DNA from: Catajapyx aquilonaris
Taxonomy: Eukaryota
Reading direction: 5' to 3'
Assembly: GCA_000934665.2 (NCBI GenBank)
Contig: JYFJ02001992.1
Location: 1-64,000, forward strand
Length of the DNA stretch: 64,000 bases
The first letter of the stretch is position 1. Every line of letters begins with the position of its first letter. Of the stretch, positions 10,099-20,812 are shown in pieces. The notes under the pieces are model-generated. The model did not search any database. It was not told where the DNA came from and worked only from the letters and a program-made list of their open reading frames with translations. The position numbers and the translations under genes are program-made.

Positions 10099-10289
10099 CT
10101 AAAGTACCGGGCAAGTAAGGGCAGCTGGTAACATGGTTGAAGTTCTGGGACTGCATCTCCTCCTGATCTGTCTCCCTGTGGTAGAAGTAGTTGAAATTGG
10201 ACACAATGACAGGAACTGGAAGCGCTATCGTCAACACGCCAGCGATGGCGCACAGGGAGCCCACGATCTTGCCCCAAACCCCGACAGGT
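10099..10289 (-). CDS. Sh: Shaker S6 exon (PVP gate motif)
   Basis: [64 protein letters not shown]; acceptor catctatag|A, donor TTAG|gtaagt; 191 nt. Confidence 0.98.
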
Positions 10290-12017: not shown

Positions 12018-12908
12018 CAGGTGTTGGACAGAATAATAGGGCCCCTGCGAAAAGAAGTTGAAACTTTGCATCTGTTGTATTCGAAAACTGGAAAAGTTAC
12101 AAAGATGACCTTTACCTAGTTTTGAAGCTCTGTCGATGTACATTTGTTGAGGTATACAGATGATGCAAAAGTCACGAGAAGGGGGGAGAAAAAAAAGACG
12201 AACGATACCCTCCAGGCTCCATTTTTGACCAGAGTGTCCCACCCTTATAATTTGAAAACGAAAACAGTTACAGATATGAACGTGACTGAATTTTGAAGCT
12301 CTCTCGATGTCACTTTGTGTGGTATACAAATTGATCAGTTTTCACGCCAGGGGGCGGGGGGAAAAATAGAAACGGCATCCCCCTTCCCCGGCACTGTTTT
12401 AATACAAACAATGGAAAATTTTCCTCCCACTGCTAGTTACTGCTAACTTAGCAATACCAGTGCCAAATATGGTACTGATAAAGTGATAAGTTAGTAGCAA
12501 CTAGCAGTGGGAGGAAAATTTGCCATTGTTTGTATTAAAGCAGTGCCGGGGAAGGGGGATGCAGTTTATATTTTTTCCCCACCCTCTCGCGTGAAAACTG
12601 GTCAATCTGTATACCACACAGAGTGACATCGAGAGAGCTTCAAAACTCAGTCAAGTTCATATCTGTAACTGTTTTTGTTTTCAAAAATTAATGAAAAAGG
12701 TGTGACACTCTGGTCAAAAATCGGGCCTGCATTTCTTTCTCCTATTCTCGTGATTTTGGGGTCATCTGGTTACCTCAACAAATGTACATCGACAGAGATT
12801 CAAAACTAGGTAAAAGCCATCTTTGTAACTTTTCCAGTTTTCGAATGAAACAGACGCAAAATTTCAACCCCTTTTCGCAGTGGGTCCCATTATTCTGTCC
12901 AACCCCTG
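12018..12908. mobile_element. Long foldback MITE, TA-flanked (Tc1/mariner-type ends)
   Basis: ta-caggtgttggacagaataat...attattctgtccaacccctg-ta; the arms stay complementary almost to the centre near 12460. Confidence 0.9.
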
Positions 12909-13656
12909 TATATTACAGAGACGAAGAAGAGCGAGCTAAAACAAAACTAAAAGTAAAAGTATAGCGAACTGTTTTAGTTGGCACAGACTTTTAAAGGGAG
13001 ATTTTAATTCTCTTGCATCTGAAAGAGTCGGGGGGAATGTGAGCACCACGCAAAAGTGGATGACAAAAAAAAGGGAAATTGCACATATGTAAGCGCAAAT
13101 GCATTGTGGCAGCTGTACATGCCTACTGGAATTAAATGCAAACAATTAAATCATCAAATCTGAACTAGTTCGAAACTACTCCACCACAATTTCTTTACGC
13201 TAACCAATGCACGCAGGAAAGTTACAGGACAAAATGACATGGAGGTTACACGTAAACTACTGAGAAAAAACGGTCATATTGCAGGATTACACGAGACGCA
13301 CAACACTGAATGATCACCACCGATATAAAGAAGAAAAGAACAGAGGAGAGAAGAGGATGAGTTTTTCCAGTAATAATTTTGATTTTGGCAAATTCGGAAT
13401 GGGGCTTGGGCTATTTTAGAATTTTTTTTACTGTTCTGAACAGTCTGAAGCGAGCAAAGAATTTTCTGATGCGCCTACACAGGTGTAGTCAAGGTTGGGA
13501 CTTATTAGGGTCAAGATGTCATTTGGATGGAATTTGGTGAGTGTTAGGGTACAAAATGGATGGTATAGGGTGTAACCACGCGACTTTTGGCGTGGGTTAG
13601 GGGGGAGGTCAAAAGGGAGGAGAGGTAGACGCATGATCAAAGTGAGTACATCGTAC

Positions 13657-13786
13657 GTCATGTCACCATAGCCCACTGTGGTCATGGTTACAACAGCCCA
13701 CCAGAAGGCATCGGGGATAGACTTGAAGTAAGACTGCTCAGTGCCAGCCTCGGCGAAGTACACAGCACTTGAGAACAGAACCACAC
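13657..13786 (-). CDS. Sh: Shaker alternative pore exon P3 (turret GTEQSYF; filter TVGYGDM-T)
   Basis: Acceptor tgtctttcag|GT and donor ATGAC|gtacga; 130 nt. Reads [42 protein letters not shown], and AC|A gives Thr. Confidence 0.95.
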
Positions 13787-13820
13787 CTGAAAGACAACAC
13801 CCACACAGCCTTTAGATTAC

Positions 13821-13950
13821 CTCATGTCACCATAGCCCACTGTGGTCATGGTTACAACAGCCCACCAGAAGGCATCCGGAATAGACTTGAAGAAAGACTT
13901 GTCAGAGCCAGCTTCGGCGAAGTACACAGCGCTTGAGAAGAGTACAACAC
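13821..13950 (-). CDS. Sh: Shaker alternative pore exon P2 (turret GSDKSFF; filter TVGYGDM-R)
   Basis: Acceptor gctcttgcag|GT and donor ATGAG|gtaatc; 130 nt. Reads [42 protein letters not shown], and AG|A gives Arg. Confidence 0.95.
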
Positions 13951-14003
13951 CTGCAAGAGCATGTCTAGTGATCCACATGGGGAGGCAAAGCAGTTGGGAT
14001 TAC

Positions 14004-14182
14004 CTAATGTCCCCGAATCCGACAGTGGTCATCAAACACAACTAAGGCCCACCAGAACGCGTGCGAGATCGACTGGAAGCACTCTTCCGTCATTTGGCCA
14101 AAACCAACACAGGTTTTGTCTACCACATGGTACTCATTCAAAATGTTGGTCATATATGCACCATTCGATAAGAGCAAAATCC
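14004..14182 (-). pseudogene. Sh: Divergent third pore (S5-P) exon, P1; frameshifted as assembled (pseudo-exon, poison exon or assembly error)
   Basis: Acceptor atgatttctttcag|GG. Reads GILLLSNGAYMTNILNEYHVVDKTCVGFGQMTEECFQSISHAFWWALVV, then a frameshift, then MTTVGFGDI(R)|gtaatc. Length is 179 nt, one base off the required phase. Confidence 0.8.
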
Positions 14183-15547: not shown

Positions 15548-17570
15548 AGCTTAAGAAAAAATATATCTCCAAGCAACATGATTATATCCATCTGCACAAA
15601 GCCAGAAAGTTAATAACCTCCTGAAATGGGTAAGCGCTGAAAGCTACGGAATAGAGCGTAAGTCCAAAACAGGATGTCACTCAACCCTACAATGTAACCT
15701 TGGAGATAACTTTAAGTACGCTTACTGATGGACATGAAAAATTTAAGAAGCTTCGTTTAATTGTCCGATACAGAGAACATTTTAAGGAAAAGGCATGCAC
15801 TGTAATCATATCAGTATATAACGCAAATAATTTGTCGCTGCCAAGCTCTTCAATTGTTCATGCCCATAGTGTAATGTACTCCACACGCGATAATTATATT
15901 TACAACTCCTAATCACTTATATAGGGACTCGATCAGCACATTAATATTGGCAATATGAAGTAACGATGACAGCATAGTTAGAAATGTATGGTTGCAGCAT
16001 AATAAAATGACAATGATGCTGTTAATATCTGATAAGTTACTTCTAGAGACTTATGACTGGCCGACCTTTCGATAATCAAATTAAACTACCAATCAAATTC
16101 AGTCAACATCAACATCTTTCAAGCAGCAGCAGTTAGCAAGCATCAATCATTTCATTTACTAGTAGTTTACGGCAGTAAGTATCAGATACACATGTACTAT
16201 CCGTATATGCTATTACAAACTGGTTTTAGGCGAACCGCATATTAACCTGCACTTAAACGCCTAAATAATACTGTCAAATGTATGATTTTTTTTTTGCTTC
16301 TAACCTGATAATTACATTTGAAGGGGAACTTGATAGACTTTCATAAAAGCTGATCACAACTTTGTGTAATTTACGGCGTTACAGTTTCCGAGACTCATAA
16401 TCTTTGAAGCTCATAGATTTAAGACTTGTGAGAATTAGTTTCCACAGGCAGAATGGGNAGAATGGGGGGGGGGGGGTCCAATGAAGGCTTTGTAGAAAGA
16501 TGTTGAAAAGCTGCAATTTTTAACAAAAGAATTATATGAAAAAGGATTATATACTGCATGTTAAATTAATATTTCCACTCATAATATGACATCATTTTCG
16601 TGATTACGCAATCCGATTTACATGCCCTTAATTGTTATATGTGTTTCATTTTTATGTAGGGCTTTCATTATCATGCGTCAATGCATTTTACTTATTTAAT
16701 AAGGTCAGCGGAAAGCTGTCATAAGTCACAACATGGTCAATTAAAAGTTAAATGGACTACTCCGGATAATAGTGTTTTCTGTCGTTGTTAAGAGTGGCTT
16801 GAAAAATAATGCTGCACAAACATGTGTGATGGCCCAACCTGCAAAGTCGCCTTGTGATGACTCATCCCATACACCGAAGATACACAGGGTGTTCCACGTT
16901 TAACTCACTTGTATAATAAAGTAAACACTTAATAATAAAGTCGAAAACACACATAAATATTTGTGCGCCCATCCAGATTAATTTGATTCCATTCGTGAAT
17001 TTATACTATTATTACGAGGCTTTATTATGCAAATAGAGTTGAGCGTAGACCTCCTGATACTCTATAACTGACAACAAAATGTAGGTGGTCCAGTATAAAC
17101 TTCCCACAGTGTCATGAGGGACATTCAACTAATCGTGACTTAGATAGCAACATTGTTGTGAGGATATTACTGGCGATGTTACAGGTCTTGGAGAGTTTAT
17201 TATGGACCACATGGCATAACTGCACTATACTTCAAGAGGAAGAGGGCATTATTGCCTACACACGTCTTTCCCAAAACGAAGGAACAAAAAACAGCTATTT
17301 GAAACACCCCCAGACGATGGCAAGCCGAGGCTGGAAGAGGAAATCAACGCCACCAAGTATACGAACCACCAACACAAGAGCATGTATATATGATAAAAAA
17401 AAGCACAAACATCACAAATCACCAAAGGTACACCGGATCCCGCACTACTAGAACCATGATGTGAGAAAAAGTAGAAAAGCGCAAAATTGACGCGCGCATG
17501 ACTTTTGTGAGGACAAAAAAAGAACAAAGAAATATATGGGTTTTCGAAGGTTTTGTCTGCTTGTACTTAC

Positions 17571-18217
17571 CAATGAATAAGAAAAATATGAGCAAGCCTA
17601 ACTCCCTCATGGATGCCTTGAGAGTCCTGCCGAGGATTTGTAGCCCCTTGGAGTGCCTGGAAAGTTTGAATATTCGGAACACTCGCACCAACCGGATCAC
17701 TCGGAGGATGGCCAGGGACATGGCCTGGTTGGAGCTCTTGTCCGTAGGTCCCGCCGGAGCCAGAGGCTTGGTCATCAGCAACTCCTCCTTCTCGGCCACC
17801 ACCGTGCCCAGCGTTATGAAGTAAGGAATGATCGCAATGATATCTATAACGTTCATGACGTTTCTAAAAAAGGCAAACTTGTTTGGACAGGCTAAGAAGC
17901 GCACGATCAACTCGAAGGTGAACCATATGATGCATATGGTTTCGATCAGGAAAAAGGGGTCTGTGATTGAGGGCACTTCATCCTCCTCGATCTTGGTGTG
18001 GTTGGCTAAGGTTCGGTACACTTTGTAGTGCTTGAACTCGGGCAAGGTCTCCAGACAGAAGATGACGATGGACAGGAGGATGACGAAGACCGAGATAATG
18101 GCCACCACCCTGGCGTGTTGAGAGCTCTCCGGGTATTCGAACAGAAGCCATATCTTGCGCTGAAGCTCATGCGACGGCAGCGGCTTCTCCTCTTCCTTGA
18201 TGAAGCCCTCATCTTCC
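17571..18217 (-). CDS. Sh: Shaker S1-S4 voltage sensor and start of S5
   Basis: [14 protein letters not shown]...S4 [22 protein letters not shown]...[13 protein letters not shown]; acceptor gattgcag|G, donor ATTG|gtaagt; 647 nt with phases 2 to 1, consistent with neighbours. Confidence 0.99.
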
Positions 18218-20546: not shown

Positions 20547-20812
20547 CTGAACTTGTTGGTGGCCAACTCCCCCAGCTCATAGAACTTGATCTCCTCGGAG
20601 AAGACGTCGAGAGGCACGTTGACCGGGCGCCGTAACCTTCCGCCGCTCTGGTAGTAGTAGAGGATGGCATCAAAACTGGGCCGGTTGCGGTCGAAGAAGT
20701 ACTCGTTCCGGAGCGGGTCGAAGTACCGGATCCTCCGAGCGGGATCGCCCAGAAGGGTGTCCGGGAACTGATTCAGCGTCCGCAACTGGGTTTCGAACCG
20801 GAGACCGCTCAC
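20547..20812 (-). CDS. Sh: Shaker T1/BTB tetramerisation domain exon
   Basis: [24 protein letters not shown]...[17 protein letters not shown]; acceptor ccctgcag|, donor AG|gtaacg; 266 nt. Confidence 0.98.

Follow-up and report, generated by a model that had tools for sequence, protein, structure and literature searches.

A 64,000-nucleotide stretch of the genome of Catajapyx aquilonaris, referred to here as the window, contains a Shaker gene in which two neighboring exons encode the same part of the channel. We regard these exons, A and B, as functional, homologous and mutually exclusive, each encoding the end of S5 together with the turret, pore helix and selectivity filter, a reading predicted from sequence to which we give a probability of about 0.85. 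The Arg-type exon A lies at 13821..13950 and the Thr-type exon B at 13657..13786, both on the minus strand. The original prediction, that tandem mutually exclusive pore exons exchange Arg for Thr at position 449 together with residues of the turret, is supported by the anatomy of the exons, by the reading frames and by four of the four isoform pairs compared in relatives.

The Shaker gene

The gene lies on the minus strand, and motif scans and lists of open reading frames (ORFs) placed four exon regions in the window. The exon for the tetramerization domain (T1) is at 20547..20812 (Pfam BTB_2, E 2.4e-25; score 89.2 bits, cut-off 21.4), and the S1-S5 exon follows at 17571..18217 (Pfam Ion_trans, E 3.4e-31) with the donor GTAAGT. 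The S6 exon, at 10099..10289, begins A CCT GTC at 10289. All matches to BTB_2, Ion_trans and Ion_trans_2 were above the Pfam cut-offs, and reading of the sequence alongside them showed the core features of a Shaker gene, including S4 with its Arg repeat and the TVGYGD filter.

Shaker chains were the top matches in the PDB (E 6e-21), ahead of Kv1.x, Kv2, Kv4 and Kv3. Among the matches listed in the protein search, the S1-S5 exon was 85–89% identical to named insect Shaker proteins. Its identity was 86.5–88.8% to seven winged-insect proteins from seven orders, 78–79% to springtail, 82% to amphipod and 75–77% to ostracod proteins, values that would fit a hexapod not belonging to the winged orders sampled. 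On the strength of the T1 domain, the Ion_trans core and the closeness of the matches to Shaker, the gene is assigned by sequence to the Shaker, or Kv1, voltage-gated K+ channels.

Two other features of the window were recorded. Two pairs of direct repeats of 60–69 nt, 75% identical, occur at 12079–12318 and 12626–12845 in the intron between exon B and the S6 exon. The second family resembles the reverse complement of the first, and the two may represent a small inverted-repeat element. Ten isolated single N bases, a feature of the assembly, are found at 16458, 34090, 35019, 35753, 38707, 41771, 43966, 47960, 55280 and 62309.

Anatomy of the pore exons

A repeat finder returned two direct copies of 141 nt at 13654–13794 and 13818–13958, which are 91% identical and 164 nt apart. 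Exons A and B, located in them by reading the minus strand, have the same length and phase, are flanked by AG and GT, and agree at 118 of 130 nucleotides. Exon A comprises 43 residues and the AG of codon 449 (Pfam Ion_trans_2, E 4.3e-10), with the borders CTCTTGCAG/GTGTTG at its acceptor and GACATGAG/GTAATC at its donor. Exon B comprises 43 residues and the AC of codon 449 (Ion_trans_2, E 5e-10), with the borders GTCTTTCAG/GTGTGG and GACATGAC/GTACGA. Between them, at 13787..13820 on the minus strand, is a mini-intron of 34 nt, GTAATCTAAAGG...TCTTTCAG. Each exon extends from the Gly that follows FLFI through GYGDM and the first two bases of codon 449, and corresponds to the P region between S5 and S6.

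Of the 12 base differences between A and B, 7 are synonymous and 5 change an amino acid. The replaced residues (A/B) are S/T421, D/E422, K/Q423, F/Y425 and R/T449. The Drosophila ShB numbering used in the original prediction was checked against full-length PDB chains of Shaker (655 and 668 aa), to which query residues 2–42 align at chain residues 408–448, and the positions 421, 422, 423, 425 and 449 were confirmed. The repeat finder and the reading of the minus strand likewise confirmed what had been said of the two exons, that is, 130 nt each, identical phase and 12 differences, 5 of them replacing.

The junctions are consistent with this arrangement. The S5 exon ends ...ATT G/GTAAGT at 17571, and its last G opens a Gly codon that either pore exon can finish. 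At the other end, codon 449 spans the junction with S6, where the leading A at 10289 finishes it, as had been predicted, to give AGA (Arg) from exon A and ACA (Thr) from exon B.

The ratio pN/pS between A and B is 0.21. Synonymous changes account for 7 of the 12 differences, compared to about 23% expected under drift (binomial P 0.0088). Both copies are therefore under protein-level constraint.

A search of sequence runs matched six, none of them RNA; four were DNA from a single sample and two, which had a small share of the matches, were of unspecified kind. That two haplotypes of one exon were assembled side by side to give an artefactual tandem copy, a possibility raised with the original prediction, is scarcely credible, even though the assembly may have been made from the four DNA runs, which hold 94–96% of the words sampled and are hence not independent of it. 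The copies have distinct flanks that look functional, each with its own acceptor and donor, and a 34-nt spacer; the differences are concentrated in turret codons; and the same tandem layout is present in unrelated contigs and gene models.

Reading frame and mutual exclusion

When the exons were joined in silico, an open channel frame was obtained for S5+A+S6 and for S5+B+S6. Stop codons were met in S5+S6, in S5+A+B+S6 and in every join made through a third copy, P1, which is described below. Because 130 is not a multiple of 3, inclusion of both exons or of neither gives premature stops, and the frame shift that had been predicted for these joins is thus confirmed. Retention of the 34-nt mini-intron places an in-frame TAA right after the Arg codon.

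We propose that each transcript joins S5 to either A or B, and then to S6. Exon A would supply Ser-Asp-Lys at 421–423, Phe425 and Arg449, and exon B Thr-Glu-Gln, Tyr425 and Thr449, and one gene would provide two versions of the outer vestibule of the channel.

The splice sites suggest how the choice could be enforced. Both alternative exons have weak donors, GTAATC in A and GTACGA in B, and the flanking constitutive exons have GTAAGT; exon A has in addition a short pyrimidine tract. The motif CTAAA, 6–10 nt from the donor of A, is the sole branch-like motif upstream of the acceptor of B and a partial match to the familiar branch-site consensus. At 34 nt, the intervening intron falls under the steric threshold of some 40–50 nt (excerpts of PMC4165533 and PMC7969005). 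The excerpted text of the former describes C. elegans introns of less than about 40 nt between mutually exclusive exons as not being excised (PMC4165533), and that of the latter gives a threshold of about 50 nt from the 5′ splice site to the branch point (PMC7969005).

A steric mechanism for the choice between A and B, based on this putative branch site, is likely. The 34-nt intron would most likely be too short to be spliced out, and double inclusion would be blocked sterically. With the probable branch site of B about 10 nt from the donor of A, U1 and U2 could not assemble together, and use of the donor of A and of the acceptor of B should exclude one another. The frame would act as a second safeguard, in that double inclusion or no inclusion would lead to premature stops. 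No convincing selector or docking structure was found by folding of 14010–13540 or by duplex scans. An exon-intron helix was also considered; comparison by hand gave one compensatory pair in locus L013 and no pairing in locus L003, and the idea was dropped.

We infer that both exons are used in C. aquilonaris. It is improbable that this animal uses just one, with the other surviving as a conserved-looking relic or as a cryptic exon like P1, although the copy 53 nt upstream, P1, has decayed and exon A combines a weak donor (GTAATC) with a short pyrimidine tract. Neither exon is disrupted, both have canonical sites, their pN/pS is 0.21, and in other arthropods Arg- and Thr-type exons are both found in annotated isoforms. 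The turrets SDKSF and TEQSY, moreover, resemble those of an ostracod first exon and a springtail Thr exon, respectively.

A third, degenerate copy

P1, a degenerate pore-like exon copy of 179 nt flanked by AG and GT, lies at 14004..14182 on the minus strand, and is separated from exon A by an intron of 53 nt at 13951..14003. Its donor, GTAATC, is the same as that of exon A. P1 has a 1-nt frameshift and a longer turret. In the phase set by S5, it stays open for 59 codons, until its final three nucleotides give a TAG; MTTVGFGDI appears in another frame. P1 gave no Pfam match, and had two matches among 1.84 billion representatives, both of them repetitive ORFs. Possible readings are a pseudo-exon, a 'poison' exon that carries a stop, and an assembly indel. 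The broken frame of P1 indicates that copies of the pore exon can decay in this genome.

Occurrence in other arthropods

A search with the S1-S5 exon returned 3162 proteins; the listing of the best 120 spanned 60–89% identity, and 117 of its entries were from arthropods, at 85–89%. Among the 117 listed arthropod proteins, 58 had only a Thr-type pore, 33 had only an Arg-type pore, 14 had an Arg-type followed by a Thr-type pore and 1 had a Ser-type followed by a Thr-type pore. The remaining 11 were without a pore segment, and in some of them S5 is joined to S6 with a shift of frame, in the manner of a 'pore 0' form. In the protein searches, identity to the S1-S5 exon never exceeded 89%, and no protein was identical to exon B.

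The search with exon B added more read-through models and genomic ORF fragments. In the matches listed, 28 arthropod gene models had two pore segments, the second of which was always Thr-type; the first was Arg-type in 23, Ser-type in 2 and truncated in 3. A single sawfly gene contributes eight of the 28 as isoforms. Hymenoptera, Coleoptera, Hemiptera, a mayfly, Glossina and a Drosophila species are represented among the models. Stick insect and ostracod models also have both segments, and stand outside the count of 28 as the search pattern missed them.

Many public models with tandem pores (sawfly isoforms P0042-P0064, P0097, P0098, P0099, P0116 and others) would specify a channel subunit with a duplicated pore. 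These models are probably annotation artefacts that arise from read-through across the tiny intron.

Isoform annotations bear directly on the alternative use of the two types. In each of the four equal-length isoform pairs compared, from a bee, a sand fly and two moths, the members differ solely in the pore exon, with Thr or Arg at 449.

The original prediction also held that Drosophila has a single pore exon. This is doubtful, at least for the genome of Drosophila subpalustris, whose model (P0128) has an intact Arg-type pore upstream of the usual Thr pore. The same arrangement is present in Glossina pallidipes (P0127). Judged from these models, higher flies too may have a second pore exon.

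Genomic loci were sought by scanning metagenome contigs. The scan gave 80 loci. In 70 of them, S5, pore and S6 follow one another in a single uninterrupted frame, and these represent intronless Kv1 genes of other animals. The other 10 have a separate pore exon bounded by AG and GT, and are arthropod-like. An exon ending in AG lies upstream of an exon ending in AC in nine of these 10; in the tenth, the available upstream sequence is limited to 399 nt. Five of the nine paired loci are near-identical to each other, so that the set represents about five independent lineages. The intervening introns measure 44–45, 60, 176, 416 and 2496 nt, compared to 34 nt in the window. The introns of 44–45 nt start with GTAACTAAC, in which a branch-site-like CTAAC, by the usual consensus, overlaps the donor. 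Since the spacers of other loci reach 176, 416 and 2496 nt, a steric block cannot be universal for the Arg/Thr exon pair.

A divergent Arg-type pore exon, with YYADANHYDTSF or FFADKDCPDSNF and with AVIT replacing AVVT, was observed at L002:3451-3582 and L005:1372-1503, and in moth proteins such as P0037 and P0040. In the springtail-like loci and in Lepidoptera this exon sits 0.4–2.5 kb upstream of the Thr exon and is not adjacent to it.

The start of the intron that follows exon B is conserved. In the window this segment, at 13635..13656 on the minus strand, reads GTACGATGTACTCACTTTGATC, and in locus L013 (913-934) it reads GTATGATGTACTCACTTTCATT. The 12-mer TGTACTCACTTT is identical in the two, though the exons differ at 25 of 130 nt. 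Among 61 fragments with peptides read through beyond the Thr exon, 36 start with YD and 24 with YDV. The intron element may be a splicing control element. No complement of the 12-mer, with up to two mismatches, was found in 21000-9900.

Origin of the pair

Exons A and B are closer to each other (118 of 130 nt) than to any foreign exon, with which neither shares more than 117, and closer than the pairs within other loci (93–115). The similarity is uneven along the exon. All seven synonymous differences are confined to the first 74 nt (P 0.032). From there up to the last base, A and B share an identical stretch of 55 nt (13658-13712 and 13822-13876), as against 3–8 differences there in the pairs of other species. 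The identical stretch suggests a gene-conversion tract or constraint at the nucleotide level.

An exon tree was built from 14 sequences and 129 columns, with three of the five near-identical loci left out and the last base, which defines the two types, dropped. None of its 11 inner branches was supported. A clade of all Arg exons (p-AU 0.144) and a clade of the two window exons, R and T, alone (p-AU 0.535) were both compatible with the data, neither being rejected. The turrets suggest affinities of their own. TEQSY of exon B is like TEHSY of springtails, and SDKSF of exon A is like TDKSF in the first exon of the ostracod model.

The pair could be the result of a recent duplication specific to this lineage and independent of the Arg/Thr pair of insects, in which case the closeness of A and B, the highest in all comparisons, the identity of the last 55 nt before the defining base and the p-AU of 0.535 for the window-only clade would be accounted for. 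We consider this unlikely. The order of Arg then Thr, along with the last base, G or C, recurs in nine of the 10 arthropod-like loci and in gene models, and the clade that unites all Arg exons was not rejected either. The confinement of the synonymous differences to the first 74 nt fits a conversion tract over the 3′ part of the exon. Taken together, the conserved order, the defining base and the type-like turret residues favor an old duplication with later gene conversion over an independent recent one. Most likely, from these sequence comparisons, the duplication is shared with insects and crustaceans and was partly homogenized in this lineage.

A broader proposal, which we put forward tentatively and at somewhat less than even odds, is that the Arg-then-Thr pair is an ancient pancrustacean module of Shaker. 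It would have been kept in ostracods and springtail-like genomes and also in bees, beetles, mosquitoes, tsetse and one or more Drosophila species, and would be toggled by competition between donor and branch site in the mini-intron together with the conserved element after the Thr exon.

Functional implications

Position 449 affects external TEA block, and Kv1.5 has Arg there. Together with the turret, it sets slow (C-type) inactivation, external TEA block and the binding of peptide toxins in Shaker. Because of this known role, the two isoforms are expected to differ in inactivation rate and in block by external TEA and by toxins; the Arg form would be predicted to inactivate faster and to be insensitive to TEA. 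If the choice is regulated, the Arg/Thr switch could let neurons or muscles tune the kinetics and pharmacology of A-type current from one gene. The pair also offers a clean and compact case of exon choice probably enforced by a 34-nt intron.

Comparison with known systems

Drosophila Shaker has alternative 3′ exons, ShA and ShB, which differ in S6. There too, one Shaker gene varies its pore-lining sequence by alternative exons, with an effect on slow inactivation. The ShA and ShB variants, unlike those in the window, begin after the selectivity filter and form alternative 3′ ends, with no internal tandem pair.

With respect to spacing, the 34 nt between A and B have parallels in exons 2/3 of alpha-tropomyosin, 9/10 of C. 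elegans let-2, 5A/5B of egl-15 and 4a/4b of vertebrate OGDH, all of which have sub-threshold spacing in the excerpted sources. The steric clusters of C. elegans given in those excerpts have introns of 14–34 nt, a range that includes the window intron. In the excerpted account, exon length is 3n nt in the five C. elegans clusters whose introns are too short; in contrast, the window exons, at 130 nt, shift the frame.

The closest likeness in annotated genes is to insect isoform pairs, which have Thr or Arg at 449 (Nomia melanderi X1/X2, Phlebotomus argentipes X2/X3, Galleria mellonella X1/X2 and Spodoptera frugiperda X1/X2), and to insect read-through models, in which an Arg exon lies upstream of a Thr exon. 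The sequences differ in detail. The insect Thr exon almost always has SENSFF, whereas the Thr exon of the window has TEQSYF, nearer to TEHSYF of springtails. The Arg exons of moths and of springtail-like loci are of the divergent 'AD...' type, unlike exon A.

Pore splice variants of shaker in the spiny lobster Panulirus interruptus are said to have been described by Kim et al. in 1997 (J Neurosci 17:8213). The same authors reportedly found a 'pore 0' form that lacks the pore exon, and a form of that kind would match the frameshifted join of S5 to S6 in the window. In lobster Shaker, as in the window, the alternative exon encodes the pore-forming region between S5 and S6. The window pair differs from that of the lobster in being accompanied by a third, broken copy, and the window organism is closer in S1-S5 to insects (86.5–88.8%) than to the amphipod (82%) or to ostracods (75–77%). 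Pore splicing gives lobster Shaker two functional forms, and kappa-conotoxin PVIIA blocks just one of them, according to an excerpt of PMC2229645. With the title of the 1997 paper, this excerpt bears out the statement in the original prediction that splicing of pore exons had been described earlier in Panulirus Shaker. The literature searched, insects included, contained no description of the breadth of Shaker pore splicing beyond the lobster work. The window pair is not a new kind of system; it belongs to the kind that was published for the lobster in 1997 and that many insect annotations already display, and the lobster finding reflects a feature that is widespread in arthropods.
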